Shown: positions 10,553 to 25,651 of the stretch, in pieces
Layout: each line of letters opens with the position of its first letter
How positions within the stretch are numbered: the first letter of the stretch is position 1
Source of the DNA: Chloroflexota bacterium
Lineage (GTDB): Bacteria; Chloroflexota; Anaerolineae; Promineifilales; Promineifilaceae
DNA length: 64,000 nt
NCBI GenBank assembly: GCA_029559155.1
Contig: JAKQCM010000240.1
Location: 3,130-67,129, forward strand
Direction: 5' to 3'
Program-made: the position numbers and the translations under genes
Notes under the pieces: model-generated
Told to the model about the DNA's origin: nothing
Seen by the model: the letters and a program-made list of their open reading frames with translations, nothing else
Database searches by the model: none

Positions 10553-12913
10553 GTGATAAAATCGCCGTTCACCACCCGTTTTTTACGCCCCAACAGCCGA
10601 TTACTTCACCTCGCCGAGTGGGTTGTTTTGTTCATGGCGCTTATCGGAGCGATCTGGGCGGCTACTCAAAGCCAGAATGCGCCGCAGCTCATTTTGTTGG
10701 GGCTGCTCATGATCATCACCCTGAATTTTGGTTTGCCGCCGGAGCGCGGCGCGGCCGGTTTAACGCCGGTGGTGGTGATCAGCAGTTTGTTGATGGTGGG
10801 ACTGGAAACGGCCGTTATCCTCTTCATCCTCAGCATTATCCTGGCCGAAATTGCCCGCCCCCTCTGGAACCCTCTGTGGGAATACGTCGACGTCGCCCGA
10901 CCATCCTGGCCGCAGCGCCTGGGCATTGGCCTGGTACACCTGATCAGCCTTATTTTCGCCGGGCTGGCGTTTCAACGGCTTGGCGGCGTGGCGCCCCTCA
11001 CCGTCGAATTCATCGAAGAATTAGACCTCAATTTGCTCACCTTGCTGGCGATTGTTTATGGCGCGACTTATTTTTTGTTGATGTGGCTGATCTGGCTGTT
11101 GATGAAACGGCCGTCGAGCCGCTTTTTCCGCGACAATGCCTTATCGGTCGTCACGTTTGGCTTTTTGGCCCAGCCGTTCGCCTGGCTGGGCAGCATCACC
11201 TTTGTGCGCGACGGTCTGCCGACATTTGTGATTTTTACTCTGGGCGTTGGCGTTTTCAGCGTCCTGATCTGGATTTCCTGGCAGCGCCGCTTCATCATGG
11301 AGCGGCGGCTGGCGCAATTTGCCGCCCTGAATCAGACCGGCGCATCGCTGCGAGAAACATTGGACCTACCGGTTGTGTTGGCGCGGACGCATGAACTGGT
11401 TAGCGAATTGGTTGCCGTGGACGAGTTTGCCGTTGTGCTGCGCAGCGACTCCGGGCAGTGGCAACGGCCGTTCCCCAACACCTCATCCCCCAACCCGGCC
11501 CTTGACGAGCCGGATGATTTTACGCGCTGGGTGATGGAAAACGGCCGTGTTCTCGACCTGGACCCGCGCAATATGCCCTTCGCTGCCCGCCATCAACTCA
11601 CCCCACCCCGCCCCCTGCCCACAGCCTGGCTGGGGATTCCCCTCACCTCGGCCAACCAGATAAACGGCGTTCTGATTGTGCAGCGTCAGCCGCCCAATCC
11701 TCCCTTCAACCAATGGCAACGCGAACTGCTGATCACAATCGCCGGGCAAGTAAGCGCCGCCATCCAAAACGCCCGCCTTTACAGCGAAACCCTCCGCCTC
11801 TACACCCTGACGGACGAAGCGTTGGCGCAACGAGTGAAACAGTTACAGGCTTTGCTGGATTCTATTCAGGAAGGCGTGCTGATGGTGGACAAAAACGGCG
11901 TCATTGTTTTGCTCAATCCCATAGCCGCGGCCTTGTTAAACCAACCGGCCCAACTGCTTTACCGGCAGCCTCTGGACGCAGGCAGCGCCGCCGAACCGTT
12001 GGGGTTTACGGCCGTGCAGCTTTCCAACCTGCTGCAACAAATCCAGACCGGCAGCCTGCCGCCAGAGCGGCAAACCACCTTCAACGCCAGCAGTCAGCGC
12101 ATCTTCACTCGCCTGGAAGCGCCCGTCCGGACCGCCGATAATCAGGCGCTTGGCTGGCTGATGCTGTTCCGCGATGTGACCGAGGAGCAAAAACTGGCCG
12201 AACGGCGCACCGACCTCACCCGCATGATCGTCCACGACCTGCGGAATCCGCTCACCACATTGGTCAGCACCATCAACTTGTTAGAAAACCAATCCGCCGA
12301 GAACCAGAGCGACCTGCTAGACACCGCACGGCATGGCTGCCTGGACATGTTGGATATGGTCGATTCGCTGATGGACATCAATCGCATGGAGGCCGGGGTA
12401 TCGGTCGTAGAAGCGGAGGCGATGCGCCTGCCGCCGTTGGTGGATCGGGTGGTAAAACGGGTTCTGCCGCTGGCGCAGCAGCGCGGCATTAGCCTGTCGT
12501 TTGATCCGCCGCCGCCCGAACTGCCGGCCATTTGGGCCGACGAGGAATTGGTGCGGCGGGTACTCATCAACCTGTTGGATAACGCGCTGAAGTTTACACC
12601 GGCGGGGGGAAGGGTAAACGGCCGTCTACAAACCGAATTCGATCCGACCAACGCCGGCGAACCAGGGGTGCGCTGCCTGATCCGCGATACCGGCCCGGGC
12701 ATTCCGCCAGACTTGCAAGAGCGCGTCTTCGACCGCTTTACACGCACCAATCAAGACGGCGCACCGGTCCGTGGGACCGGCCTGGGTCTGACTTTTTGTA
12801 AACTGGCGGTTGAAGCGCAAAACGGCCGTATCTGGGTCGAAAATGCGCCCGATGGCGGCAGTCTGTTCATCTTCACCCTGCCCGGAATCCCGTACTTTGC
12901 CCTGAATAGTTAA
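10553..12913 (+). CDS. multi-TM GAF/PAS sensor histidine kinase
   Basis: Hydrophobic N-terminal third. H-box VHDLRNPLTTL. N-box LLDNALKFT. G1 DTGPGI. G2 GTGLGLTF. GTG start is uncertain; ATG at 10634 is an alternative. Confidence 0.85.
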   Translation: MIKSPFTTRFLRPNSRLLHLAEWVVLFMALIGAIWAATQSQNAPQLILLGLLMIITLNFGLPPERGAAGLTPVVVISSLLMVGLETAVILFILSIILAEIARPLWNPLWEYVDVARPSWPQRLGIGLVHLISLIFAGLAFQRLGGVAPLTVEFIEELDLNLLTLLAIVYGATYFLLMWLIWLLMKRPSSRFFRDNALSVVTFGFLAQPFAWLGSITFVRDGLPTFVIFTLGVGVFSVLIWISWQRRFIMERRLAQFAALNQTGASLRETLDLPVVLARTHELVSELVAVDEFAVVLRSDSGQWQRPFPNTSSPNPALDEPDDFTRWVMENGRVLDLDPRNMPFAARHQLTPPRPLPTAWLGIPLTSANQINGVLIVQRQPPNPPFNQWQRELLITIAGQVSAAIQNARLYSETLRLYTLTDEALAQRVKQLQALLDSIQEGVLMVDKNGVIVLLNPIAAALLNQPAQLLYRQPLDAGSAAEPLGFTAVQLSNLLQQIQTGSLPPERQTTFNASSQRIFTRLEAPVRTADNQALGWLMLFRDVTEEQKLAERRTDLTRMIVHDLRNPLTTLVSTINLLENQSAENQSDLLDTARHGCLDMLDMVDSLMDINRMEAGVSVVEAEAMRLPPLVDRVVKRVLPLAQQRGISLSFDPPPPELPAIWADEELVRRVLINLLDNALKFTPAGGRVNGRLQTEFDPTNAGEPGVRCLIRDTGPGIPPDLQERVFDRFTRTNQDGAPVRGTGLGLTFCKLAVEAQNGRIWVENAPDGGSLFIFTLPGIPYFALNS

Positions 12914-12967: not shown

Positions 12968-14383
12968 ATGACATCATCCAATCCCTTTTTACAGCTAGAC
13001 CGGCAAATGGTCGGCGACGTGTACACCAGCAGCGAAGTGATGGACAATCTGACCATCCTTTGCGACGAGTTTGGCTCGCGGTTTGGCGGCACGCCCGGCG
13101 AAAAACAGGCCGCCGACTTTATGCAAGCCAAACTAATAGCCTACGGCCTGCAAAATGTTCACCTGGAACCCATCAATTACATTGGCTGGCGGCGGGGCAG
13201 CGTGAAGTTAGAAATTATCGCCCCCATCCAAATGGAGCTTCCGTGCATCAGTCTGCCTCATTCACCAGCCTGCCAATTAGAAGGCACGCTCATCGACATG
13301 GGTGAAGGCGCGCCAGACGATTTTGAAGCCCGCGCCGACGAAATCCGTGGCCGGATCGTCCTGACGACCAGTGAAGCCCGGCCAAAAGGCAGCAAACGTT
13401 GGGTACACCGCATGGAAAAACACGGCCGTGCCATTGTCGCCGGAGCCACCGGTTTCATCTTCATCAATCATTACCCAGGTTTTGGTCCGGCCACTGGAGG
13501 CATTGGCAATGATGGCGAGTCTCTCATCCCCGGCATATCCGTCGCCCTGGAAGATGGCGCCTTTTTGCAGCGCCTGCTCAAACGGCACGGCGAGGTCAAA
13601 ATCCGCCTCACCAGCACCGACGAATGCGCCCCAATGGTTTCCTGGAACGTCGTGGGCGATCTGCCAGGCAATCAAGCGCCGGAGCAAATCATCATGCTCG
13701 GCTGCCATTATGATGGCCACGACATTTCCCAAGGCGCGACCGATCCGGCTTCCGGGACAGCAGCTTTGCTGGAAGCCGCCCGGGTTCTGGCCGCGTATGC
13801 GGCCGGCAAACTACCCTTCACTGTGCGATTTGTCTTATGGGGTGTAGAAGAAATTGGCCTCATTGGATCAACCCAATACGTGCAACAGCACCAGGACGAG
13901 ATGGCGAATATCCGCTTTTATCTGAACATGGACATGGCCGGAAGCCTGCCGAACAAAGGCATTGTGTTGAATAAGTGGCCGTCTCTGGAACCGATTTTTG
14001 CGGGTTGGAGCACAGAAATGGCGCTGCCATTTGGCATCGACCAGTCGATCAACGCCCATTCGGACCATTATCCATTTTTAATGGCGGGCGTGCCGACGGG
14101 CGGCATCGGCAGCGTAGGGGGACCGCCGAGCAGCGGCCGGGGATATGCCCACACGCGCTACGATACGCTGGACAAGACGGAGATCACCAGTTTGCGCGAA
14201 GCGGCTGTGCTGGCGGCGCGATTGGCGCTGCGCATGGCCAACGCGGCTGATTGGCCGGCTCAGCAGCGCAGCCAGGAAACAGTCGCCGATTTACTGGATA
14301 ATCCAGACAATCGTGAAGAATCCGCATTTTTTGCGCGTTTGGATGCCTATTATGCTCAGGCCCGGAAGGAATCGGCAGGCTAA
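12968..14383 (+). CDS. M28-family aminopeptidase with PA domain
   Basis: Zn-ligand contexts HYDGHD, EEIGLIGS, NMDMAG, HSDHYPF. AGGAG sits before the ATG at 12968. The ORF track starts at 12938. Confidence 0.8.
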   Translation: MTSSNPFLQLDRQMVGDVYTSSEVMDNLTILCDEFGSRFGGTPGEKQAADFMQAKLIAYGLQNVHLEPINYIGWRRGSVKLEIIAPIQMELPCISLPHSPACQLEGTLIDMGEGAPDDFEARADEIRGRIVLTTSEARPKGSKRWVHRMEKHGRAIVAGATGFIFINHYPGFGPATGGIGNDGESLIPGISVALEDGAFLQRLLKRHGEVKIRLTSTDECAPMVSWNVVGDLPGNQAPEQIIMLGCHYDGHDISQGATDPASGTAALLEAARVLAAYAAGKLPFTVRFVLWGVEEIGLIGSTQYVQQHQDEMANIRFYLNMDMAGSLPNKGIVLNKWPSLEPIFAGWSTEMALPFGIDQSINAHSDHYPFLMAGVPTGGIGSVGGPPSSGRGYAHTRYDTLDKTEITSLREAAVLAARLALRMANAADWPAQQRSQETVADLLDNPDNREESAFFARLDAYYAQARKESAG

Positions 14384-14485
14384 TTTGCGTCGACGCCGGC
14401 AAAAGAGGCGCACCTGACGGCAAATACATCGCTGGGTTTGCAGATTGGTTCGATCCGAGAGATTGAAGCAATATTACCGGTAAAC

Positions 14486-14529
14486 AAAAAGAGCCTGGCT
14501 GTCTAGGAAAAGTCAGCCAGGCTCTTTTG
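14486..14529. terminator. bidirectional rho-independent terminator
   Basis: 12-bp stem AGAGCCTGGCTG/CAGCCAGGCTCT flanked by AAAAA and TTTT. Lies between the convergent M28 and PspC genes. Confidence 0.8.
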
Positions 14530-14547
14530 CTTGGTGGGGATGGTGGG

Positions 14548-14754
14548 TTAGCGGCGAGGGATGATAATCCAGAGCAGGACGTAGGGCAGGAAACCGGGTA
14601 AACCACCGGGCAGCAGCAAGATCAGGAAGAGCAGGCGAAACCAGAAGGGGCTGATGCCATAAAATTCGCCTAGACCGCCGCAGACGCCGCCCACGATGCC
14701 ATTTTGCCGTCTTAATTTATTTGTTGCTTTCATCGTACTCATTGTTACCTCCAA
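14548..14754 (-). CDS. PspC-domain small membrane protein
   Basis: GIVGGVCGGLGEFYGISPFWFRLLF followed by a hydrophobic segment. 68 aa. Confidence 0.7.
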   Translation of the reverse strand: MEVTMSTMKATNKLRRQNGIVGGVCGGLGEFYGISPFWFRLLFLILLLPGGLPGFLPYVLLWIIIPRR

Positions 14755-14836
14755 ACAGCAGCCAAGCTGCTGTGCATTTGCGTTTTCCAGTTACGGCTAC
14801 CATTACGCAGGTGGGTCACAATGGTTGCGCTAGTGA

Positions 14837-16147
14837 CTAGATGATCTGGCCGCGTTCATTGCGGATGGCTGATACCAAACGCTCCAGGCTTTGATCGCGG
14901 CGTTGTATGTAGCCGACAAGTTCGCGAACCTTAGGGCCTTTGCCCTCACCCGGTAAATAGTCGTATTCTAGGCCTAAATCAAAGCATAGGGTCCGGAGTT
15001 CCTGGTAGTCGAAATAGTCGTTGAGCAGGCGGCGGATCTCGGTGGGACTGATGTTGACGGGGAGGGAAACGGCCGTTTCCGTTTCATCTTCGTCTGCGTT
15101 ATTGGCGTGCTGGCGGATCCATTCGGCAAAAATAGCGCCGTTGACATTCCAATCGTTGAGGCCGGGCACAATGAAGCCCAAAGCGCGCAGTTTGCGCCGC
15201 GCTGCATTGAGGGCTGGAGAATGCGCCCAATCGGGGTGAACGGCCGTACGCAACGCTAGACTGCGCAAATAATCCCGTTCACATTTAGTCAGATCGCGCC
15301 ACCATTGCTCCATGTAGGGAGCCAGCGAGACCAACAGTTGCGGCAGCAAGGCGTTAAACGTCGGGGGCATCCCGTAGAGTTTTGTCTCGTACCATTTGGC
15401 GGCCGTAGCCTGCACAAAAAATGGCAGCGATCCGGCCAAGGCGTGGATGTCGGCCACTTCGTTGTCGACATATAACAAACCGGTTTGCATAGCCGGTTGG
15501 CGAATCAGCAATTCCACTTCGCGCATCTCCAGACCAGGCAAATAAAGCGGTGTTGGATAAAAAATGTTGTAAAAAGGGGAGGTAGGCGGCAGCCCAATCT
15601 GTTCGCCCAACTGCGACAAATTCCAATAGGATGAGGTAATACAGGCCAGTTCATAGTCAAATACGCCGGTCATGGCGCGTAGTTCTGTTAAAAAATCTTC
15701 CGTAAAAGAGCCGGTCCGAATATGGTCAAATTCATCCAGGAGCAATATGATGCGGCGATGGGGATGCTGGCACAAAATGGATTCTACGTCATACAAATTG
15801 GCCTCGCCAGATGGCGACTGCCAGAGGTTAAGTGGTCTCGTACCGCTTAAGACATGGTTTAGTTTGTTTATTAGACGGTGGTAGAAATCGGCAGGCGTTC
15901 TGCAAGAGGACATGTCGATGTAAACCATGATGTAATCACGGGGATTGGGGACATAACGAGCCATGACTTCGCGGTGTGAGACGTATTGGAAAAAAGACGT
16001 TTTGCCCGCGCGGCGCACGCCCAAAACGCTTAAAGATTGCGCCTGAATGCCTCCGACGATTTCAAAGAATCGGGAGACTTGTTCGGTACGGCCGTAAAAA
16101 TCTTCTGGCCGTTTTATCGGATGGCCAACCACATATGTCAGCATCAT
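14837..16147 (-). CDS. P-loop ATPase (Arch_ATPase/AAA_16-like) with C-terminal effector-associated (death-like) domain
   Basis: Walker A GVRRAGKTS (aa 43-51). Walker B IILLLDEFD (aa 133-141). C-terminal aa ~365-432 PTEIRRLLNDYFDYQELRTLCFDLGLEYDYLPGEGKGPKVRELVGYIQRRDQSLERLVSAI matches the EAD pattern. GGGAGG SD 4 nt before the ATG, and 10 nt after the upstream stop. Confidence 0.8.
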   Translation of the reverse strand: MMLTYVVGHPIKRPEDFYGRTEQVSRFFEIVGGIQAQSLSVLGVRRAGKTSFFQYVSHREVMARYVPNPRDYIMVYIDMSSCRTPADFYHRLINKLNHVLSGTRPLNLWQSPSGEANLYDVESILCQHPHRRIILLLDEFDHIRTGSFTEDFLTELRAMTGVFDYELACITSSYWNLSQLGEQIGLPPTSPFYNIFYPTPLYLPGLEMREVELLIRQPAMQTGLLYVDNEVADIHALAGSLPFFVQATAAKWYETKLYGMPPTFNALLPQLLVSLAPYMEQWWRDLTKCERDYLRSLALRTAVHPDWAHSPALNAARRKLRALGFIVPGLNDWNVNGAIFAEWIRQHANNADEDETETAVSLPVNISPTEIRRLLNDYFDYQELRTLCFDLGLEYDYLPGEGKGPKVRELVGYIQRRDQSLERLVSAIRNERGQII

Positions 16148-16157
16148 GCACCCTCCC

Positions 16158-19100
16158 CTAATCTAATAGAGAGCCTAACGGCCGTTTACTAACAATCCAA
16201 CTACGCAGCAAATCAAACGATACAGCATACGCATAATCCTTACTTATTAAAGTTGGCTGCCAGCCGCCCGGACGTGGCAGCCGTGTCTGCATCTCCCTCT
16301 CCACTGCCTGCCGCGTAATCAGCCGGCGTTGCTCCAAACTCTTCAACGCCTGATTCAACACTTCATCCGCAAAATCGACATGGCGCAATCTCTGGGCAAT
16401 CTCTGGGCGTAAAATGGCCTCTTCCCCCAATTCAGCGCTGCCCGACAAAGAAGCCAATACCAACTGCTCTTCTCGCGAACACTCATTCCACAGATGCAGC
16501 AAGTGACTGTCATCCTCTTCCAAAATTCGATCAAATGTCTCCCGCACATCAGCAATGGATATTAATTTGCTGCGATTATTTGTCAAATTCGTCGCACTGA
16601 TCAGCCGGTGGCAAATTAACTGGCTGAAATAAGGATGCCCACGCGCTGCCAACCAGATTCGTTCAACTGCCAAATCGTCGTACTGGATCATGGGAGCAAC
16701 CGGCTCGCGGATCAGGCGTTCAGTCTCGTCTCGCGTTAATGAAACAATCTCACGGCTAATGCCTACATGAAAAATAATACTCCAATAATCTTCCACCAAC
16801 TGGTTTGTGCCTACCAGAATAAAGGTGACTCGGGTACGATGCTGCATGAGCGAGCGCAAATAGGACAAAATGTCCTGGCTGAGTTGGCCTCGCTCAATGC
16901 TTACTTGCAACTGCTCCAATTCATCCATGATCAATACCAGCAGGCCATTTTCCGGCAATTTGTCCTCTACTTTGTCCAAATAGTCGTCAAAATCACGGAA
17001 AAGCGTCCCATTGATAGACCAGGAAGCGGGAGGACTCACTTCAATGCCTCGGCGGTGCAGGTTGCGGGAAATGTCATGGCTTAAGCGATCAAAAAACTCC
17101 GCCGTCTCGCAGCCCGCCAATCGTTGTAAATCGATGTACACAGGATAGATGGGGTAACCGGGATATTCTCGTATGTTTTTACCTCGATGACCGCCCACCA
17201 ATTGATATAGTGTCGAAGTTTTACCCATTCGCCGCTGGCCGTACAAGATCAGTGTGTGTGGCTGTGTTTTACCAATCAGGTTCTCTTCGATCCAGCGGAA
17301 GACATCTTCTCGCCCGACATAAAGGGATTCGGAAGCGGCCGTTAGCGGCTTACCGACAACATAAGGGTTATCGACATGGAAGGAGCTGCGCGCCAGCGAA
17401 TCAAACTGAACTTCTGATTCTAAAATTTGCTGATATTCATGGCCGCGAACATCGTAATATGTCGCCCGAATCATGATGCGTGCCTCTTTTTCCCTGGGAT
17501 GCAGCCAGATAGTCAGCGGAACGCTTTGGGCTGGGTTCACTGCGCCAATTTGGATAACGGCTGAATCTTTTTCAGCCTCATAAGCTGGCGAGGGTAGTAT
17601 GTCTAAGGTCAGATTTTCGATGATATCGGCATACTGTGGGTTGGTTAGCAATCCTACAATTTGGGCGCGCCCCCGGCTGACAACGATATGATCGCGGTCT
17701 AGTTGAAAATCCAAAATGGTGGGCATGTCCCGTTCGTCTGCGGTAATTTCACCTAATTCATAGAGGATCATGCGCGTGGTAGTCGAAATTTGGCGATTGG
17801 TAAAGGTACGAAGTCGTTCGATTTCGGCGCGGGAAACAAGGACGTTTTCACGTTCGGGTGATAATTTTTGCGCGAACCAGTCATATTCTTCTTTGGTAAG
17901 TGGGTGCCGGGGCAAAAATTCGATCTTGAAGACGTGAAATTCGTAATCTTTGAAGATGTAGTCGCGCTGCGAAAACTGCCGCTGGTGCAGGGGCTTGTAT
18001 TCCCAAACGATACGATAATCGCGAGGACTTTGCAGGCCAAGTTCTTCCAGCAACTTGCGCTGGATGGTTCTGGCGAATGAGTCTTTATCGCCCTGATTCT
18101 GGTCCATTCGGCCGCCAACCAGGTTGAACATGTCCCAATTGGCATTCCACTGTAGCAAATAGCGTCGGTCCTCTCCGCTGCCAATGGTGATCAGGGCGAA
18201 GGCGCTACGTGCGCGTAATGTGTTGAGAATGCGGCTTACTTCTAACGGCCGTTCAATGCCCCGCACCGCATGTTTCCCCGCTACCAAACCAGAACATAAA
18301 GCCAATCTTTTGGCCCAGGGATACCAGGGCGCGTTTTCTAATTCTTCAAACTTCAAAGCTGCCATGCTTTGGAAGAAAACCGCTACCGGATAATGATAGC
18401 GGAAACGCTCCGGACTGTGCGTCTTGGCCATCTGTCGCAGCGAAAACAAGAAATAAAACAGGTTTTCTGAATATAACGGGAATTGCGTATACAACGTGTC
18501 GTACCATATCGGACGATAATCGCGTAAATCGCTAATAAAATCGGCAAAATCCCCTTCAGCCTGCCAGAGTACGTCTTCCAATAACAAGGCAAATTTGAAC
18601 GCTGTGTCCGAATCCCACAACCCCTCGTCGATCATTGATTTATAGAGACGATATAAGACATGCGTCCGAAATTCCACTTCCAATTTTGCCAGATCGTAAT
18701 AGATATGACCGGGGCGGGCATCGGAAAAATCGATCAGCCAGACGGCGACGCCGGTGTCGCCGGCTTCGACCAACACGTTTGTGGTATTGAGATCGCCGTG
18801 TACGACCGGTGAAATCTGAGGAATAGGCACGATCATATCTTCGCGGCCAATCTCCCAAAGCAGGCAGCGGATATTGGTGACGGGTGAAATGAACTGCCCA
18901 GACCCCAGATCATAGCTGTCTGATTCCAGGTTGTACGGCCGTTCCGTAATCCGGGCGATATGCTGCGCCAAAATCGTCTCCTGCGACGCCACAACGCGAC
19001 CACGAACGCAAATCCGCTTACCCCGCCGAATCAACGGATGCGCCAGTATGTCCCATTCCGATTCAGAAAATGCAACCTTAAAACGCAAAATCGGGTGATC

Positions 19101-20360
19101 CTTACTCCTCAAAAGCGGCAGCGCCGGATACATGGCCAACAAATCGTCGTGCAAATAGATAACCCCATGAGCGGTATCCAATTCAGCCACCTCAAACCCG
19201 CATAATTTCACCCACGGCTCCTCTCCATGCCGCAGCGCCTGGCTAACTGCTTGCAATTTCACATTTCCCGGCACCGAAGATAACGTGGTCAGCTCTTCCG
19301 CCGAAAGTATAATATCGCTCTCGTTGTCATCATCCTGCTCCACCAAAACAGCATCAGCCAGAGTCAGATGGGGCGGCAAAACACGTGAATACAATGGCGC
19401 CCAATAACGTAGCTCGCTATCGCTGCTGCCAATATAAAGTTGTTCCAGGCTCATCCGAAGCTCTTCCAACAGAGCATCAATCAACTCTTTGCGCAGTCGA
19501 TTCTGGTCTTGTAAAAATTGAGTCAATGTAATCGCATCCCGTCTGGACCCTGCCAGAGCATAACAAGCTCCAGCTAGATGCTGACCCCGCACCATTTTCC
19601 CCTGTATCTGACCAACACGCTGATTCAATCGCGGCTGAATTAAAGTATCTTGTTTCTCCTGAATCATCTCCAGGCGGTCAGCCGCATCGATCTTTAGGAT
19701 ACGCCGCAGCTCATTTGTTGGTTTCACCCGATAAATGCGCGAGCCACTAAACCCCTCATCCATGCGAAAAATCTGGACAACGTCACTGGTCGCAAACAAA
19801 CGTTTGATGATATAGCGTTCTTCGGGATTGTCATTCAACGCCATCAGATCAGAGTTGCTCAAACCTGGTTCAATGCGCGGCTTAACCAGATCGCTGGCGT
19901 AACGATCAAAAATATCTGGCCAAACAACCGGGGAAAAAACGTGTTTATGAATTTGCTCGTTCAGCCGTTCTAATTTTGCCGACTGCTTGGTAAAATGCCA
20001 GGCTGCGCCCTCGCGCATCAGGTAACGAACGCGATCATCCAGAGCGCTGGTAAAAACGACAACCGGCAGCTTCGGTCGAATTTCCCGAACCTGGGTAATA
20101 AACATGGTGATTTCCGGCAACAGATCGTAATCTGCGTCCACAAAAATTAGATCGATATCTTCGTCCTGGTTTATGATGCGCAGCGCCTTTTCAAATGACC
20201 CAGCAATGAAAAAGCGAAATTCGTTTGTGTGACACAAGACAGTTCTGGGAAATTGGTCAGCCTGGATAGAAGTTCCCGGCTGAGTAAAATGTCCCCCAAC
20301 ACACAATGTTTTTAACTTCACAAACCCGTTCAAACTATGTGTGGGCGTTTCTGAAGGCAT
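16158..20360 (-). CDS. 1400-aa multidomain protein: pseudo-receiver, protein-kinase-like/APH-like, Nudix-like, beta-rich linker, P-loop ATPase, winged-helix C-terminus
   Basis: Single uninterrupted ORF. ATG with GAGGAG SD. Domain motifs are listed in the sub-features below. Confidence 0.9.
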   Translation of the reverse strand: MPSETPTHSLNGFVKLKTLCVGGHFTQPGTSIQADQFPRTVLCHTNEFRFFIAGSFEKALRIINQDEDIDLIFVDADYDLLPEITMFITQVREIRPKLPVVVFTSALDDRVRYLMREGAAWHFTKQSAKLERLNEQIHKHVFSPVVWPDIFDRYASDLVKPRIEPGLSNSDLMALNDNPEERYIIKRLFATSDVVQIFRMDEGFSGSRIYRVKPTNELRRILKIDAADRLEMIQEKQDTLIQPRLNQRVGQIQGKMVRGQHLAGACYALAGSRRDAITLTQFLQDQNRLRKELIDALLEELRMSLEQLYIGSSDSELRYWAPLYSRVLPPHLTLADAVLVEQDDDNESDIILSAEELTTLSSVPGNVKLQAVSQALRHGEEPWVKLCGFEVAELDTAHGVIYLHDDLLAMYPALPLLRSKDHPILRFKVAFSESEWDILAHPLIRRGKRICVRGRVVASQETILAQHIARITERPYNLESDSYDLGSGQFISPVTNIRCLLWEIGREDMIVPIPQISPVVHGDLNTTNVLVEAGDTGVAVWLIDFSDARPGHIYYDLAKLEVEFRTHVLYRLYKSMIDEGLWDSDTAFKFALLLEDVLWQAEGDFADFISDLRDYRPIWYDTLYTQFPLYSENLFYFLFSLRQMAKTHSPERFRYHYPVAVFFQSMAALKFEELENAPWYPWAKRLALCSGLVAGKHAVRGIERPLEVSRILNTLRARSAFALITIGSGEDRRYLLQWNANWDMFNLVGGRMDQNQGDKDSFARTIQRKLLEELGLQSPRDYRIVWEYKPLHQRQFSQRDYIFKDYEFHVFKIEFLPRHPLTKEEYDWFAQKLSPERENVLVSRAEIERLRTFTNRQISTTTRMILYELGEITADERDMPTILDFQLDRDHIVVSRGRAQIVGLLTNPQYADIIENLTLDILPSPAYEAEKDSAVIQIGAVNPAQSVPLTIWLHPREKEARIMIRATYYDVRGHEYQQILESEVQFDSLARSSFHVDNPYVVGKPLTAASESLYVGREDVFRWIEENLIGKTQPHTLILYGQRRMGKTSTLYQLVGGHRGKNIREYPGYPIYPVYIDLQRLAGCETAEFFDRLSHDISRNLHRRGIEVSPPASWSINGTLFRDFDDYLDKVEDKLPENGLLVLIMDELEQLQVSIERGQLSQDILSYLRSLMQHRTRVTFILVGTNQLVEDYWSIIFHVGISREIVSLTRDETERLIREPVAPMIQYDDLAVERIWLAARGHPYFSQLICHRLISATNLTNNRSKLISIADVRETFDRILEEDDSHLLHLWNECSREEQLVLASLSGSAELGEEAILRPEIAQRLRHVDFADEVLNQALKSLEQRRLITRQAVEREMQTRLPRPGGWQPTLISKDYAYAVSFDLLRSWIVSKRPLGSLLD
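16611..17378 (-). other. P-loop NTPase domain (Arch_ATPase/AAA_16-like)
   Basis: NPYVVGKPL...YVGRE lead-in. Walker A GQRRMGKTS (K1047). Walker B LLVLIMDELE (aa 1140-1149). Followed by a helical, winged-helix-like tail. Confidence 0.75.
17745..18209 (-). other. Nudix-like domain, variant Nudix box
   Basis: aa ~718-872. GGRMDQNQGDKDSFARTIQRKLLEELGL. The REUXEEXGU position reads R768-K769-L-L-E772-E773-L-G-L (E to K). Roughly half the positions are identical by eye to the standalone Nudix at 20556-21185. Confidence 0.7.
18261..19823 (-). other. protein-kinase-like (APH/ChoK-type) domain with a large insert
   Basis: Gly-rich loop EGFSGSRIYRV. Candidate Lys K223 (RILKID). Catalytic loop VHGDLNTTNVLV (aa 520-531). 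Metal-binding IDFSDA (D544). Confidence 0.65.
19956..20228 (-). other. receiver-like (CheY-fold) domain lacking the acidic Mg-binding pair
   Basis: aa ~45-135. DLIFVD (D75), VVVFT (T104) and HFTKQ (K125) are in receiver-like spacing. The beta1 end reads FFIAGS instead of xxDD. Confidence 0.55.
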
Positions 20361-20390
20361 GGTTGCTCCTCAATTTTGGCCGATTATGCA

Positions 20391-20420
20391 ATTTTATTTA
20401 CTACAATTTAATATTTTCAA
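20391..20420 (-). promoter_or_regulatory. promoter candidate for the 1400-aa gene
   Basis: On the minus strand: TTGAAA (20420-20415), 18-nt spacer, TAAAAT (20396-20391). Lies within a 195-bp AT-rich spacer. Confidence 0.3.
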
Positions 20421-20555
20421 ATTCCTAACATAACGTATCCACATTATGCACGAATATGCGAAGGGGAGGAACTGCGCTTTATAGGATTTTTGTACTAGGC
20501 ACGGCCGTTTCAGGCAAAACACGCAGCATCAATCAGGCAAAACCATGCTTTCAGA

Positions 20556-21185
20556 CTAACAATGAGCGCCATCCAAACAAATCGAATCGTTAAAAGGAAC
20601 AGGCGTCAACTCATCCAAGGCATTCAAGATATACCGCGTTGTCATCGAAATAGGACGATCGTCACAAGTGCGTAACCGGCAAATCTCATCAACGGACACA
20701 TAGATATTCTCTCTGCCAGTAGACAGCCAACGGGCGAAGGTATTTAGCCGGTGACGATCTAGTGCCAACTCCGGAAATAGCTCCACGGCAAAAATGCTAA
20801 AATGATAATTCTTAAAATGGTTGGTACGCTGGGAGTACTGGCGCAAATAAATCTGCTTCAACTCTTTGACGATAAAAAAATCACGCGGGCTGCTTAAGCC
20901 CATCTCCTCTTCAATTTCCCGACAAATGGTCCGTCGAAATGAATTTTGGTCTCCACACGCATTGTCCACTTTACCACCAATCAGATTAAACGCCCCCCAC
21001 TGGTGATTCCATTGCAGCAAATACCTTCTGCTGCTCCCTTCTCCGGCAATAATTCGAGCCAGGGCGCTTTTTTCTACAATTGGCTCAATGGCAGATGGGA
21101 AATAATTCATTTCAAAACAACTTGCTAGTAAATTTGTATGGAAAGCCTGTTGACGCACTTCATGATAGCCTAAAACATACGCCAT
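20556..21185 (-). CDS. standalone Nudix-fold protein, paralogue of the Nudix module in the 1400-aa protein
   Basis: 209 aa. Canonical second half of the Nudix box R89-E-I-E-E93-E94-M-G-L. RRYLLQWN..W..FNLIGG is shared with the fused copy. Confidence 0.8.
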   Translation of the reverse strand: MAYVLGYHEVRQQAFHTNLLASCFEMNYFPSAIEPIVEKSALARIIAGEGSSRRYLLQWNHQWGAFNLIGGKVDNACGDQNSFRRTICREIEEEMGLSSPRDFFIVKELKQIYLRQYSQRTNHFKNYHFSIFAVELFPELALDRHRLNTFARWLSTGRENIYVSVDEICRLRTCDDRPISMTTRYILNALDELTPVPFNDSICLDGAHC

Positions 21186-21238
21186 GAGTATTGTACTTTG
21201 GTCATTTTGCCCTTCGTTTGTCGTCTTTGGGAGAATTT

Positions 21239-22387
21239 TTAGCGCGGATGAAGGAGCGCTTGATAGAGGGAAAGCAGCTCTTGAGCCGCTTTTTGCCAGG
21301 AAAATTGACGTGCGCGACGGTACCCGGCAGCTACCAACTGCGCCCGCCAGGCCGGATCGGCGACCAAATTTTGCAGCGTGGTGGTCCAGGCATTCTGATC
21401 GTGAGGAGAAAGCTGCACGGCCGTTTCCCCCACCACTTCTGGCAGCGATGAACTATACGACGTCACCACCGGCACGCCGCACTGCATCGCCTCCAATAAG
21501 GGCAGCCCAAATCCCTCGTACAAACTTGGAAATAAAAACAAAGTCGCCCGACTGTACAGCGCCGGTAAATCCGCGTCGGCCACAAAACCTAAAAAGCGCA
21601 CACGGCCGTTTAAGCCCTGCCGCTCAATTTCCGCCAACATGTCGTCGTATAACCAACCTTTACCGCCGGCGATATACAAATTGTGCGGGTAAACAGCCGC
21701 CACCGGCGCAAATGCCCGGATAAGCATCTGATAATTTTTGCGCGGCTGCACGGTTCCCACCGACAAAAAATATGGCGTGTCATCCAGGTGGTAGCGGTTG
21801 GCAACGGCCGTTAATATCTCCGGTTCCGTGACCGGCCGAAACTGCTGGTTGACCCCGCTGTACAAGACCGTGATTTTATCCGCCGGGACTTGCCAGGCGG
21901 CCACCAAATCATCGCGCGTCGCGGCTGAATCGGCCAAAACATGCGTCGCCCGCCGAATCGACCACGGGACGACCCGATTCAAATACGCCACCAACACGGA
22001 CGGGTAAACCTCCGGGTAATGAACAAACGACAAATCATGAACGGTCAGAAGGGTGGGAATGCCTTTGGCAACCGGCGGCAGCACAAAATCCGGCGAATGA
22101 AACAAATCGAGCGGCCCGGTGGCCCACTGCACCGGCGCAGGAACCCGCAGGCGATACCACAGCCGATACAACCATGCTTCTGTCAACGGCGCGGCATGAA
22201 AATGAATGTGCTCACCAGATAGCAGCGGATCGGGCACGGCCGTTTGCCCCACCTGTTTGGCGGCAAATAAATGGTAATCGAAACGGCCGTCCAGCGCCGT
22301 CAGCGCCCGCACCAATTCCCGCGTATACCGGCCAATCCCGCCGCCCTGCGTCAGCGCCGAAGTCACATCAATGCCAATGCGCATCAA
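21239..22387 (-). CDS. GT4-family glycosyltransferase
   Basis: C-terminal [19 protein letters not shown] (EX7E region). 382 aa. Confidence 0.85.
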
Positions 22388-22851
22388 TCCACGTCACTAT
22401 AGGTCCAAAAACGATTGACGAAAAAATTCCAGAACAACACCACAACCGTGGCCAACATCTTCGCCGGAATGTAACCCGGCAGCGCCAAAACGCCCATCCC
22501 CGCCAGCAGCGAATCAAATACCGGCTCCATCAACACCAAAATTAAATTATTGATCACCAGTCCGATGATGCTGACCACGGCAAACTGGCCCATTTGCGAC
22601 ATCAAACTCTTGGAGCGCGAATCCGGGTAAGTCCAATACCGGTTAAGCGTGAAATTGCTAATCACGGCCGCGGTAAAGGAGATCGTATTGGCAACCACTG
22701 TCGCCAGCCCGGTGGTTTCTTTGAGCAATGTCAGCGTGCCAAAATCGACCACAAAACCAATCGTGCCGACGATTAAAAACTTGAAAAAGCGTTCGGCTTC
22801 TTTAGGATTGATGCCAAAGCTGCCAGCCACACGCACAAAAATCGCAATCAT
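22384..22851 (-). CDS. GtrA-family membrane protein
   Basis: FFKFLIVGTIGFVVDFG and four hydrophobic segments. ATG at 22851 is preferred; the ORF track uses TTG at 22893, inside the repeat element. 4-bp overlap with the GT4 gene. Confidence 0.75.
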   Translation of the reverse strand: MIAIFVRVAGSFGINPKEAERFFKFLIVGTIGFVVDFGTLTLLKETTGLATVVANTISFTAAVISNFTLNRYWTYPDSRSKSLMSQMGQFAVVSIIGLVINNLILVLMEPVFDSLLAGMGVLALPGYIPAKMLATVVVLFWNFFVNRFWTYSDVD

Positions 22852-22886
22852 GAATTTGCTAAACCTCACCGTAAAAAGAATGTAAC

Positions 22887-22933
22887 CAGACAAACCCCAA
22901 AGGTTTGCTTCCGAAAATTTGGGGTCTGTATGG
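22887..22933. repeat. REP/MITE-like element, truncated copy B
   Basis: CAGACAAACCCCAAAGGTTTG ... AAATTTGGGGTCTGTATGG. Shares TTGGGGTCTGTATG with copy C. Confidence 0.55.
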
Positions 22934-22936
22934 ATT

Positions 22937-24490
22937 TCAAGGCTTCGGCTGTGATGGAGTGGCCAAACGGCCGTCTGCTTTTTGCTTCAGCAACGCCAGC
23001 AGCCCTAACATCACGCCTAAATGAATGTAAATATTATTTACATAAAGTTTATCAACCAGGTGATGAACCGCCAAAGCAGCCCAACATGCCATCAGCCCCA
23101 AAACAATTCCCCGTTCGGCCCCATCCAACCGGGCCAAAAGCCGCCAGGTCTGCCAGACAATCACGCTCCACAGCAGCAAATAAGCCAGCAGCCCAATAAC
23201 CCCCACCTCAGCCAACAAGTTGAGGTAGTAATTGTGCGCGTGGCCCAGAGGATCAGGCCAGTTGATGAGCGCATAAGCCGCATAAGTCGGCTCGTAGTTG
23301 CCAAAGCCCACTCCCCACCAAAGTTGATCGCGGGCCATGCCCAACGCCGCCTGCCAATGGGCCAATCGCTCCAAAACGGCATAATTCGCGTCGTTGATAT
23401 CGGCGCCGCGCACATCGCCGAATTGCAAATCCGCGCCAAAACTTACCAACCGATCAGTGACGCCGGCCGGGATCAGATTAGCCTGCAAGCCAATGATGAA
23501 GAATAACGCGCCAACTACCAGCATGGCGACGCCCCATCGCCGCTGGCGCGGCCAAAAAAACAGCAGCACGGCCGTTCCCGCAACAAACCCCAACCACGCC
23601 CCACGGCTCCACGAAAATACCAGCGCCAACCCCGTCAACAAAGCAACGCCGCCTACCAACAGCAGCGGCGCCCAAACGGACACGGCCGTTAACGAAAAAC
23701 CTGGCTCCCGTTCCCGCCAGCGCCGCCACAAAACCGCTATCAGGCCCAAAACGATGCCTGCCGCCAGCAGCACAGACAAATTGATGAACCCGCCAAAGGG
23801 GTTTGGCTGCTCGAATGTGCCCGACGCGCGATAAAACCGGCCTAAAACAAGAAAATGCTCCGGTCCATCACCGCGCAGGCCAAACTGCCAGATGCCAATC
23901 GCTGCCTGCACTACACCGGAAAAAAGCAGCAGCCCAACCACAAGCCAGGGGAAGAAACGGCCGTTTCTCCCCACCTCCTGGCCTTCCTCCTGGTCCATTT
24001 CCTGGCCAAAATCCACCACCAGCAGGGCCAACAAGCCAATTTCCACCCACTTCATCAGCTCGCGCAAACCGACAGTCACCGAAGGCGCATCCACCACGGT
24101 TGCGGCCATCACCAGCAAAAAAAGGCCCAACGGCGCCGTAAGAAACGTATGGGGCAGCACCAGCCGCCGCCGCGACAAGCCACGCGCCAACCAGACGGCC
24201 AACGTCAGCAGCAGCAGTGCCTGGCCGCTGTCCAGCCCCCAGCCAAACAGCACGCTTTCCAGCGCGCCAAACGGCCCCAACAGAAGCATCAGACACAGCC
24301 CTACGAGCGGTTGGATAAAAGTTAGAAGGATAACGGCCGTTCCCCCCACCAATGCCGCGCCCCACAGCAAAGGCAGCCGTGCCAGCAACACACCCGCCGC
24401 CACTGCCAGCGCGCCAAATAATACTGGCTGGCGCAGCACGGCCGTGGTCCGCCAGCCGGGTTGCCATTTTTGGGGGATTAACGCATTCAT
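22937..24490 (-). CDS. O-antigen ligase/polymerase-like (Wzy_C) polytopic membrane protein
   Basis: 517 aa, at least 10 hydrophobic segments. Large loop with WSRGAWLG-type motif. Confidence 0.75.
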   Translation of the reverse strand: MNALIPQKWQPGWRTTAVLRQPVLFGALAVAAGVLLARLPLLWGAALVGGTAVILLTFIQPLVGLCLMLLLGPFGALESVLFGWGLDSGQALLLLTLAVWLARGLSRRRLVLPHTFLTAPLGLFLLVMAATVVDAPSVTVGLRELMKWVEIGLLALLVVDFGQEMDQEEGQEVGRNGRFFPWLVVGLLLFSGVVQAAIGIWQFGLRGDGPEHFLVLGRFYRASGTFEQPNPFGGFINLSVLLAAGIVLGLIAVLWRRWREREPGFSLTAVSVWAPLLLVGGVALLTGLALVFSWSRGAWLGFVAGTAVLLFFWPRQRRWGVAMLVVGALFFIIGLQANLIPAGVTDRLVSFGADLQFGDVRGADINDANYAVLERLAHWQAALGMARDQLWWGVGFGNYEPTYAAYALINWPDPLGHAHNYYLNLLAEVGVIGLLAYLLLWSVIVWQTWRLLARLDGAERGIVLGLMACWAALAVHHLVDKLYVNNIYIHLGVMLGLLALLKQKADGRLATPSQPKP

Positions 24491-24556
24491 GGGAGAAAAG
24501 GGTAGAGAGAATCGGCCGTTGGTTTTAAAGCGCCAACGGCCGTTTGCCTGTTAAAC

Positions 24557-25501
24557 TTAAACGCGATTTTGGAAATACGCCACAGTTTCCCGCAGCCCTT
24601 CCATCAAATCAACTTTTGGCTCCCAGTCCAACACCCGCCGCGCCTTTGTAATGTCTGGCTGCCGCAATTTGGGGTCATCGGTAAACCGATCATCCTTCGG
24701 ATTTACAAACAAAATGTCCGATCGGCTGCCCGAAACTTCAATCACCGCTTTGGCAAAATCCAGAATGGTCATCTCGCTCGGGTTCCCAATATTCACCGGC
24801 AGAGATTCGGCCGAAAACAGCAGGCGGTAGATGCCTTCCACCAGATCGGTGTAATACTGGAAGGAACGTGTCTGACGGCCGTCGCCGTACACCGTCAACG
24901 GCTTATTGGTGAGCGCCTGGTAAATGAAGTTGGGCACGACACGGCCGTCGTTCAACCGCATCCGTGGGCCATAGGTGTTAAAGATGCGCACAATGCGCGT
25001 TTCCAGGCCATGATACCGCTGATAAGCCAGCACCATCGCCTCTGAAAACCGCTTTGCCTCGTCGTAAACGCCACGCGGACCAATCGGGTTTACATTCCCC
25101 CAATACGTCTCAGGCTGCGGATTCACCTGCGGATCACCGTACACTTCGGAAGTAGAGGCCAGCAGATACCGTGCTTCCTTCACTTTGGCCAGACCTAACG
25201 TATTGTGGGTGCCCAAAGAGCCTACTTTCAACGTCGGAATCGGGTGCGTCAGATAATCATTCGGGCTGGCCGGAGAGGCAAAATGCAGCACCGCATCCAA
25301 TGGGCCTGGCACATAGATGTGATTGCTCACATCATGTTTAATAAACGAAAAACGTTCATTCCCAAACAGATGGGCAATGTTATCCATATTGCCCGTAATT
25401 AAATTATCCATACCCACAACTGTATGGCCTTCTTTGATAAACCGATCAGAAAGATGCGAACCTAGAAACCCGGCCGCGCCTGTAATTAAAACACGCATCA
25501 T
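24557..25501 (-). CDS. UDP-glucuronate decarboxylase-type SDR (UXS)
   Basis: GAAGFLGSH Rossmann motif. YDEAKR catalytic YxxxK. MDNLITG. GGAGG SD directly upstream of the ATG at 25501. The ORF track starts at 25540. Confidence 0.85.
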
Positions 25502-25651
25502 ACCTCCTATTGTTTGGTCAGATGCAAAAACACCCGACAAGTTATTTTAACCTAGCAATATATCTGCGACGAATCACGACCGGTAATCGTGGGGCAAACG
25601 GTCAACTCGCCATTCAATAAAGCTCGTTGTATACTCTAACAAGCTCACCAA

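Follow-up and report, generated by a model that had tools for sequence, protein, structure and literature searches.

Does a gene built from the parts of catalogued bacterial conflict systems necessarily act in conflict, or can such parts belong to the core physiology of a bacterial lineage? This question is raised by three co-oriented genes, here called A, B and C, in a 64-kb stretch (the window, which denotes the whole stretch analysed) of contig JAKQCM010000240.1 from assembly GCA_029559155.1, a Chloroflexota bacterium of the family Promineifilaceae. B encodes a large protein with a receiver, a kinase, a Nudix and an ATPase domain, C a second ATPase and A a standalone Nudix protein. A preliminary description had regarded them as an island encoding an undescribed conflict or signalling system. 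We find that B occupies a fixed position in the core genome of Promineifilaceae and other related members of the Anaerolineae, and is not part of a mobile defence island. As to its function, the explanation that we tentatively prefer, with a probability of about 0.45, is that B, together with C where present, constitutes a domesticated, vertically inherited and lineage-specific switch of the nucleoside triphosphate (NTP)-dependent signalling kind known from Aravind's 'conflict systems'. It would operate on a nucleotide-linked small molecule, with partners in trans that carry the effector-associated domain (EAD) EAD7, and possibly with a link to envelope glycans. The elements of the locus are, in window coordinates:

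20556-21185, minus strand: gene A, 209 amino acids (aa), standalone Nudix protein, open reading frame (ORF) call
16158-20360, minus strand: gene B, 1400 aa, invariant core of the system, ORF call
14837-16147, minus strand: gene C, 436 aa, nSTAND-type ATPase with a C-terminal EAD7, ORF call
16148-16157, minus strand: B-C junction, 10 nt, TAG-GGGAGGGTGC-ATG, Shine-Dalgarno-like before the ATG of C
20361-20555, minus strand: A-B spacer, 195 bp, 39.5% GC

The three ORFs have exactly the coordinates, strand and lengths given in the preliminary description, and the 10-nt gap between B and C, with the Shine-Dalgarno-like GGGAGGGTGC ahead of the start codon of C, is read directly from the sequence.

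Conservation and inheritance of the locus

Homologues of B form 114 clusters with 40-100% identity, nearly all of ~1400 aa (1333-1431), with a few truncated fragments. All clusters with a taxon name derive from metagenome-assembled genomes (MAGs) of Chloroflexota/Anaerolineae (Promineifilaceae, Ardenticatenaceae, Ca. Leptovillus, Ca. Leptofilum), and the window itself is ~98% identical to Ca. Leptovillus affinis. More than one B locus was found in no assembly, and in nearly all Promineifilaceae and Ardenticatenaceae assemblies it sits a few genes from rpoC. To analyze synteny, 31 genome loci were searched by tblastn with 22 proteins of the window, and more distant loci were added, so that ~36 were tabulated (labelled L004, L014, etc.). 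The order common to nearly all genomes is rpoC, polyprenyl synthase, an idi-like FMN dehydrogenase, an epimerase, Wzy_C, GtrA, GT4, optionally A, B, and C. B diverges at the rate of its housekeeping neighbors and is vertically inherited; in L014, for example, identities are 67% for B, 67% for GT4, 83% for the epimerase, 56% for Wzy, 79% for rpoC, and 52% for C. The term 'island' is therefore inappropriate for a gene with a fixed site near rpoC, a single locus per assembly and a divergence like that of housekeeping neighbors. The GC content of A (0.45) and B (0.49) in the window is lower than the 0.54 with which it was compared, and horizontal acquisition was considered as an explanation. It was rejected, because the dip is modest and is absent or small in other genomes, where B tracks the GC content of its locus over a range of 0.41-0.64.

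The immediate surroundings of B differ between clades, which are defined here by identity to B of the window:

54-100% identity clade (except L033): B preceded by epimerase-Wzy-GtrA-GT4; slot between GT4 and B empty or filled by gene A; C downstream
50-55% identity clades (including L033): epimerase-Wzy-GtrA-GT4 upstream; slot filled by an MraZ-like gene, by a Nudix gene, or empty (L033); no C
40% identity clade: no glycan block upstream; a 527-aa nSTAND2 protein, C', downstream, then PNP_UDP_1, FtsW/RodA and a penicillin-binding protein (PBP)

B and C are adjacent in all loci of the 54-100% clade with room for the gene except L033, and the arrangement is found again, as B-C', in the 40% clade. 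Altogether, C or C' lies downstream of B in ~28 of the 36 loci. The preliminary description had made conservation of the A-B-C neighborhood a test of its proposal, and the outcome is mixed: the trio is not syntenic as such, since A is present in only ~12 of ~36 loci and C is missing from the 50-55% clades, and the full A-B-C trio occurs in ~12, but the B-C pair holds in all loci of the 54-100% clade with room for it except L033. C' of the 40% clade (527 aa; L034, region 14192-20334) matches nSTAND2 with 71.9 bits (cutoff 24; E 7e-20), and no EAD7 was detected in it. In L034, it is followed by genes for a PNP_UDP_1 phosphorylase, FtsW/RodA and a penicillin-binding transpeptidase. The MraZ-like gene (141 aa; PF02381, E 2e-25) fills the slot between GT4 and B in the 50-54% clades, i.e., in L035 (9513-9938), L037, L038, L040 and L042. 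At this position, 5' of B, it is not followed by the usual division genes rsmH and ftsL.

Domains and conserved motifs of B, C and A

Pfam searches, AlphaFold2 (AF2) models and Foldseek comparisons bear out the domain architecture originally proposed for B. Its order is receiver, TCAD9/APH kinase, helical region, Nudix, beta-sandwich, ORC/Cdc6-STAND-like ATPase and winged helix. The domains of B, and the C-terminal domain of C, are located as follows (pLDDT, predicted local distance difference test score; PDB, Protein Data Bank):

19938-20315, minus strand: receiver (REC), B residues 16-141; AF2, Foldseek, weak Pfam and PDB profile matches
18558-19766, minus strand: kinase, TCAD9 (PF19974)/APH, B residues 199-601; Pfam, invariant motifs
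17736-18215, minus strand: Nudix domain, B residues 716-875; Pfam NUDIX at residues 722-829, box reading GGRMDQNQGDKDSFARTIQRKLLEELGL
17400-17711, minus strand: beta-sandwich (Ig-like) linker, B residues 884-987; AF2 strands at 9-112 of the model of residues 876-1400, pLDDT 85-93
16161-17345, minus strand: AAA+ ATPase, lid and winged helix, B residues 1006-1400; Pfam, AF2, Foldseek, motifs
14852-15037, minus strand: EAD7 (PF19960), C residues 371-432; Pfam 62.9 bits (cutoff 32), E 2.4e-17, profile positions 1-61 of 62

Conserved residues of B were counted in 104 full-length homologues. The N-terminal domain has a (beta-alpha)5 fold in the AF2 model (pLDDT ~80-90), which superposes on the receivers of KdpE, Spo0F and CheY (Foldseek template-modelling (TM) score 0.73-0.81, root-mean-square deviation ~3 Å). 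The receiver residues D75 and K125 are each kept in 102 homologues and T/S104 in 96, and the match to the Response_reg model of Pfam reaches 15.3 bits (cutoff 30.2). In B, V-G-G replaces the acidic pair that binds Mg after beta1 in a receiver, and classical phosphotransfer is therefore doubtful. No conserved partner histidine kinase was found among the compared loci. The adjacent histidine kinase gene (10553-12913) was considered as a partner and discarded, since its occurrence is limited to the closest relatives.

The kinase domain matches TCAD9 with 71.8 bits (gathering cutoff 40; E 8.3e-20) over profile positions 8-365 of 429, and PF19974 is present in 114/114 clusters of B homologues. An overlapping match to APH scores 30.2 bits, and the catalytic loop also gives a weak match to the Kdo/WaaP family (E 0.01). 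Invariant or nearly so are G203, S205, G206 and S207 (GFSGS), K223, H521-G-D523-L-N525 with N528, and I543-D544-F545. By these motifs, the domain would qualify as a catalytically active kinase of the APH superfamily. The AF2 model of residues 1-720, made from an alignment of 11 sequences, has a mean pLDDT of 64; a beta-rich insert at ~332-500 in the kinase and the helical region at 553-720 are both confident, and the kinase core is below 50. Since the core was poorly modelled, the kinase assignment is based on sequence motifs and Pfam.

The Nudix domain of B scores 23.6 bits, which is above the gathering cutoff of Pfam NUDIX (21.1), and A of the window scores 19.8 bits, just under it; an orthologue of A reaches 42.8 bits. 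As read from the sequence, the Nudix box has an upstream G/E spacing with two 2-residue insertions and a D replacing an E. Membership of A and B in the Nudix fold is likely on these grounds. A is 51% identical to residues 718-873 of B and is, therefore, a duplicate of the Nudix domain of B. It carries an intact R89-E-I-E-E93-E94, and the REUxEE motif is kept in all copies of A. In B, residue 769, the first Glu of this motif, is E in 73/104 homologues and K in 31/104, the latter in the clade of the window only, and all genomes of this E769K clade carry A. This pattern suggests subfunctionalization after the duplication, and the catalytic competence of the Nudix domain in B of the window, with K769 in its box, is uncertain. 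PDB sequence searches with A gave MutT-like matches at E>0.1 only and no clue to a substrate. The first ~30 codons of A (21110-21185) are not conserved in orthologues, and the ORF in L004 begins at the equivalent of M26; the true start of A may be the ATG at codon 26, giving a protein of 184 aa. The copies of A in L023 and L025 are the most divergent (36-40% identity).

Between the Nudix and ATPase domains, the beta-sandwich linker is weakly conserved (mean frequency of the top residue per column 0.61). The ATPase matches ATPase_2/AAA_22 of Pfam at residues 1015-1188. In the AF2 model of residues 876-1400 (mean pLDDT 85.6), the beta-sandwich is followed by a P-loop domain of the alpha/beta type, then by a helical lid and, as the tail, a winged helix. 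In a Foldseek search of the PDB with this model, ORC1, Cdc6 and ORC4/5 were on top (E 3e-12 to 1e-8, 390-490 columns), clamp-loader and RuvB AAA+ proteins came next, and the STAND protein Avs3 was at rank 50 (TMq 0.41). The modelled fold places the domain in the ORC/Cdc6-STAND clade of AAA+ ATPases, and its Walker A (GK1047TS) and Walker B (D1146-E) motifs vary little or not at all among the homologues. The residues singled out in the preliminary description, i.e., K1047, D523 and D544 of B and E93/E94 of A, thus all fall in the motifs where they were expected. PDB sequence searches, with single sequences and profiles, gave no match for the ATPase modules of B or for C, and with the profile of B only sub-threshold matches for the receiver, APH and Nudix domains.

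C consists of AAA_22 and EAD7 according to Pfam, and it is paralogous to the ATPase-lid-winged-helix module of B (BLASTP 28% identity, E 1e-9; hhalign of the B ATPase with C, probability 99.4%, E 1e-21, 302 columns). Hence, the earlier view of C as a second ATPase of the same type as that of B, ending in an EAD, proved correct. Its conservation was studied in an alignment of 118 orthologues, and matches to Pfam profiles were sampled in 60 of them. In the alignment, GK[TS] of Walker A and D-E of Walker B never vary, and neither does the motif LPPTSPFYNIFYP (residues ~185-198; window ~15550-15600). Apart from the Walker motifs, no part of C is better conserved than this motif, which is absent from the paralogous position in B. 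Among the sampled orthologues, 47/60 match nSTAND1 and 41/60 match nSTAND2 (PF20702; best E 4e-16); C of the window itself matches neither model at E<=0.01. EAD7 is matched in 60/60, although this tail is the least conserved part of C. In L023 (11037-12092) and L025 (10507-11562), C is a 351-aa protein without the EAD7 tail.

EAD7 of C is predicted to be a homotypic adaptor, and a partner was sought in the vicinity: a phmmer search of all ORFs of the window and of 31-33 related loci (±10 kb) yielded only the orthologues of C as EAD7 genes. A profile search returned 9,844 representative proteins with EAD7, many with 2-8 tandem copies. Among the 88 best matches other than C, EAD7 is fused to EAD1 (19), AAA_16 (6), nSTAND1 (5), Roc-COR (4), TIR (3), CHAT (3) and NACHT (2). 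The supplement of Kaur et al. 2021 (PMC8195603) lists an 'EAD7+nSTAND1+TM+FGS' protein in a Chloroflexi MAG with DWQ04_* locus tags, which also encodes an orthologue of C (P0180), and a 'STAND+TRADD-N+EAD7' protein in an Ardenticatenaceae MAG (PMC8195603). Thus, candidate EAD7 partners in trans exist in this lineage.

A putative switch, its neighbors and alternative explanations

How could these parts work together? The ATPase of B and its paralogue C would bind and hydrolyze ATP and co-assemble as a hetero-oligomer; their paralogy, intact Walker motifs, adjacency and 10-nt junction are the observed part of this step. The assembly would position or gate the N-terminal kinase and the Nudix pyrophosphatase of B. 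These enzymes might synthesize and/or degrade a small molecule that is phosphorylated and linked to a nucleotide, e.g., a nucleoside diphosphate (NDP)-sugar or a nucleotide derivative. The receiver would serve as the input or as an allosteric gate. EAD7 of C would recruit EAD7 partners encoded elsewhere in the genome, none being found within ±10 kb. Finally, A, as a recent duplicate, may supply the canonical Nudix box where B carries E769K, consistent with subfunctionalization. As a whole, the system would have a conserved role in signalling or surveillance, with a plausible connection to the surface-glycan genes next to it. This explanation is favored by the TCAD9 and EAD7 scores, the nSTAND matches in the C family, the fold match to ORC/Cdc6 and Avs3, and the paralogy and adjacency of B and C. 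Also in its favor are the invariant active sites of the B and C families, the domains to which EAD7 is joined in other proteins, the EAD7 proteins of the DWQ04 and Ardenticatenaceae MAGs, the vertical inheritance at a fixed site, and the distribution of A and E769K.

Several points weigh against it. The definitions of the Pfam families on which it relies are themselves inferential. A literature search found no experimental work on the TCAD9, EAD7 and nSTAND families, which are known only from computational catalogues, and TCAD9 was mentioned only as a Pfam label. Furthermore, the locus has no diversification, domain shuffling or defence-island context, in contrast to the catalogued systems, which are characterized as 'highly diversifying'. 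The ATPase of B matches ATPase_2/AAA_22 and not the nSTAND models (nSTAND2 in 0/16 and nSTAND1 in 2/16 homologues), and the model of the kinase core is of low confidence. Also, C with its EAD7 is absent from the 50-55% clades, and L023 and L025 have C without EAD7; hence, the adaptor step is not essential to B.

The genes directly upstream of the A-B-C locus, all co-oriented with B and assigned by Pfam, are:

24557-25540, minus strand: epimerase
22937-24490, minus strand: Wzy_C
22384-22893, minus strand: GtrA
21239-22387, minus strand: GT4

This epimerase-Wzy-GtrA-GT4 module lies upstream of B in 33/35 loci with room for it and is missing only in the 40% clade. It stays with B even in the 50-55% clades, where C is absent and the outer flanks differ: in most of these loci, aldehyde dehydrogenase/CoA-transferase genes replace idi, polyprenyl synthase and rpoC upstream, and the gene downstream of B differs in nearly every clade. 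The flanking genes are as the preliminary description had listed them, but its statement that they are functionally unrelated to A-B-C does not clearly hold for the glycan module, the most persistent neighbor of B, and there may be a functional link between the two. The GT4 neighbor was also considered as a 'conflict GT4', and this was rejected, since its match to PF20706 (GT4-conflict; 50.5 bits) covers only the C-terminal half of the profile and is weaker than those to generic GT4 families (Glycos_transf_1, 110 bits).

The persistence of the module also invites a different explanation, which we consider a serious possibility, albeit doubtful: B could be a regulator or enzyme of the glycan pathway itself, controlling the supply of nucleotide-sugar or polyprenyl-linked precursors. 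The kinase would then act on a sugar and the Nudix domain on an NDP-sugar, and the ATPase with its winged helix would be a MalT-like switch that integrates signals and binds DNA. A and C would have auxiliary roles, and 'conflict' would be a misleading label for the Pfam families here. APH-fold sugar kinases (NahK, WaaP/Kdo kinases) and Nudix enzymes acting on NDP-sugars (the GDP-mannose hydrolase WcaH/Gmm) do exist in glycan pathways, and the weak Kdo/WaaP match at the catalytic loop of B is in agreement with such a role, as are the core-gene-like conservation with one copy of B per assembly and the envelope- or division-related nature of the alternative neighbors (MraZ in the slot of A; FtsW/RodA and PBP downstream in the 40% clade). 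Yet, B-C' is retained in the 40% clade although the glycan module is missing, no Pfam or NCBIfam profile puts B in a known glycan-pathway family, and C carries EAD7, a domain for which we know of no role in biosynthesis. The adjacency could also merely be inherited gene order within one bacterial order. Moreover, B has an AT-rich spacer of its own (195-420 bp) with a promoter-like site and, therefore, need not be co-transcribed with GT4. In the window, the length and low GC content of this spacer are as first described, and a promoter-like TTGAAA-18-TAAAAT is present at 20420-20391 on the minus strand (10/12 matches, ~30 nt 5' of the ATG of B); however, chance alone would give at least as many of these sites in the region (6 found vs. 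8.6 expected from shuffles). A permissive Rfam scan of 14000-26000 matched no riboswitch or other RNA.

Inherited gene order is central to a further alternative, the least probable of those considered here, in which B is a general lineage-specific regulator, e.g., of development, stress responses or filament growth, and the glycan module and C are its neighbors by descent alone. Gene order is conserved out to rpoC in many genomes, indicating that synteny is generally slow to decay here, and the promoter-like spacer of B would suit an independent regulator. Against this stand the survival of the glycan block through rearrangements on both sides and, in the window, the 10-nt B-C junction with its Shine-Dalgarno-like sequence; the paralogy of C to the ATPase of B also argues for co-function of the two.

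The signalling switch proposed above could also take a more specific form, which we think distinctly unlikely. B would then be a core-genome 'guard' that monitors the upstream nucleotide-sugar or polyprenyl-glycan pathway, which is commonly perturbed by phages and antibiotics. Using a phosphorylated nucleotide-derived signal, and via C and its EAD7, it would trigger EAD7-tagged death or containment effectors (TIR, caspase-like, TRADD-N) encoded elsewhere, thus constituting a vertically inherited, NLR-like switch for integrity surveillance and programmed cell death.

Downstream of C, gene content varies. A PspC-like ORF, an M28 peptidase gene and the histidine kinase gene are present there only in the closest relatives.

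14548-14742: PspC-like ORF, downstream of C, assigned from a sequence motif

At 14480-14547 on the minus strand, 3' of this ORF, a long GC-rich inverted repeat is followed by a T-run (gcaaaagagcctggctgac...gtcagccaggctcttttt), which looks like the terminator of a B-C-PspC transcription unit; the repeat was not listed by a simple terminator scan. The neighbors of the locus in the window encode glycan synthesis, idi/polyprenyl synthase, rpoC, a release factor, FtsY, XseA and an H+-PPase, and the rest of the 64 kb is housekeeping as well, with no integrase or transposase among the annotated ORFs. Two other large ORFs on the minus strand were noticed. In one of 1930 aa (39175-44967), the TPR repeats are confined to the two termini (residues ~16-82 and ~1904-1928), and its interior of ~1800 residues matches no Pfam family at E<=1e-5. 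The other (52973-55624) encodes an ordinary MalT-type STAND regulator (AAA_16, TPR_MalT and a LuxR/GerE helix-turn-helix (HTH) domain) that is unrelated to A-B-C.

What would follow from these explanations? In this locus, conflict-type parts are found in the opposite evolutionary mode, i.e., with fixed length, at most one copy per assembly, vertical inheritance across a family, and joined to a glycan block. If B indeed functions as a switch in signalling or surveillance, multicellular bacteria can domesticate NTPases and adaptors of the 'immune-type' and make them part of their core physiology, and the locus offers a conserved target for studying the roles of a TCAD9 kinase, a fused Nudix domain and an EAD7 adaptor. 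Natural variation is on offer for this purpose: B with or without C, E or K at position 769 of B, and A present or absent, against a background of invariant catalytic residues. If B is only a regulator of the glycan pathway, the locus cautions against taking the 'conflict' labels in Pfam as evidence for defence. The hosts, Ca. Leptovillus, Ca. Leptofilum and Promineifilaceae recovered as MAGs, are abundant filaments in activated sludge, and regulation of their envelope is, therefore, of applied interest.

Comparison with known systems

Is the locus, then, a known defence system, or an unnamed one? Scans of A, B and C with the models of PADLOC-DB v2 and NCBIfam gave nothing significant; the best PADLOC matches were PDC-S27 for C (E 9.8e-4, 16 bits, P-loop only) and LmuC for B (E 0.009), with none for A. 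No description of the architecture was found in Kaur et al. 2020, Kaur et al. 2021 or the supplement of the latter, in which the strings 'NUDIX+nSTAND1', 'Kinase+NUDIX' and 'nSTAND1+EAD7' do not occur. One supplement file of Kaur et al. 2020 contains no relevant terms, and a 2026 survey of STAND proteins does not mention Nudix or Chloroflexota. Thus, the preliminary description, which recognized no named defence system and considered the combination undescribed, is upheld on both counts by these sources. Its reference to the catalogue of Kaur, Burroughs, Iyer and Aravind was also apt, since TCAD9 of B, EAD7 of C and the nSTAND1/2 models matched by orthologues of C were all defined there.

We consider it unlikely that A-B-C is a self-contained, unnamed anti-phage or abortive-infection system, in which the NTPases would sense infection, and nucleotide depletion or signalling together with EAD7-recruited effectors would kill or arrest the cell. 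The domain families TCAD9, EAD7 and nSTAND and the fusion of EAD7 relatives to TIR, CHAT and NACHT would fit such a system, and so would the PNP_UDP_1 phosphorylase gene after C' in the 40% clade. Phosphorylases of this type serve as effectors in some defence systems. The hosts are filamentous (multicellular) Chloroflexota, which is the setting in which conflict systems of this kind were reported to be enriched (Kaur et al., PMC7159879). However, no PADLOC model was matched, the operon contains no effector, and neither ATPase carries sensor repeats (TPR, WD40, LRR). In addition, the region is neither variable nor rich in defence genes, the locus keeps its site, is passed on vertically, diverges at an ordinary rate and shows no shuffling of domains, and the trio is not conserved, A and C each being dispensable in some clades.

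Among the systems with which the locus can be compared, STAND regulators of the MalT/AfsR type are large multidomain ATPases with a DNA-binding-type tail, encoded beside a metabolic cluster that they could regulate. By its sequence features, B would resemble them as a multidomain ATPase with a winged-helix tail next to a metabolic gene cluster. In contrast to MalT and AfsR, B lacks the LuxR/SARP HTH domain and the TPR sensor repeats, and it contains three additional catalytic or signalling domains. With Avs and other NLR-like STAND receptors, it shares an ORC/Cdc6-STAND ATPase with a winged helix and N-terminal enzymatic domains on the same polypeptide. Unlike the receptors of the Avs family, however, it has no C-terminal repeat or sensor domain, defence island or PADLOC match, and it is a slowly evolving core gene.

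The vWA-MoxR ternary systems contain active APH-like kinases, Nudix domains and histidine-kinase-independent receivers as sporadic modules, and EAD7 is classed among the adaptors that recruit effectors (Kaur et al., 2020; eLife 9:e52696). The TCAD9 kinase module of B and the EAD7 adaptor of C are shared with these systems. Nevertheless, neither the surrounding ±10 kb nor the large ORFs in the rest of the window include a MoxR, vWA or VMAP gene, and whereas the ternary systems have a MoxR NTPase and hypervariable effectors, the present locus has an ORC/STAND-type pair and no effector hypervariability.

Of the arrangements described so far, the two-gene nSTAND2 operon comes nearest to the present locus. 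It is a computational prediction of a mobile operon, in which two neighboring genes encode paralogous STAND proteins that are predicted to form a hetero-oligomer; one of these proteins is inactive and is fused to a GT4 or HEPN module (Kaur et al., 2021; eLife 10:e70394, Fig. 6C). As in that operon, two adjacent, co-oriented and paralogous genes for STAND-type NTPases are present here, one with extra enzymatic modules, a GT4 glycosyltransferase is associated with them, and orthologues of C as well as C' of the 40% clade match the nSTAND2 model. Three of the four defining features of the operon are, however, not found here. One of its modules has eroded NTP-binding motifs, whereas Walker A and Walker B are kept in both B and C. 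Its GT4 or HEPN module is variable, whereas the receiver-kinase-Nudix array is fixed in 114/114 clusters, and GT4, fused in the operon, is a separate neighboring gene. The operon is mobile, whereas the present locus is fixed, vertically inherited and confined to Chloroflexota/Anaerolineae. Furthermore, C has an EAD7 tail, and the ATPase of B is below the nSTAND models. Since both ATPases look active, the array is invariant, the locus is fixed and GT4 is separate, we do not file A-B-C as a member of the nSTAND2 operons. By analogy, however, it may work like them in outline.

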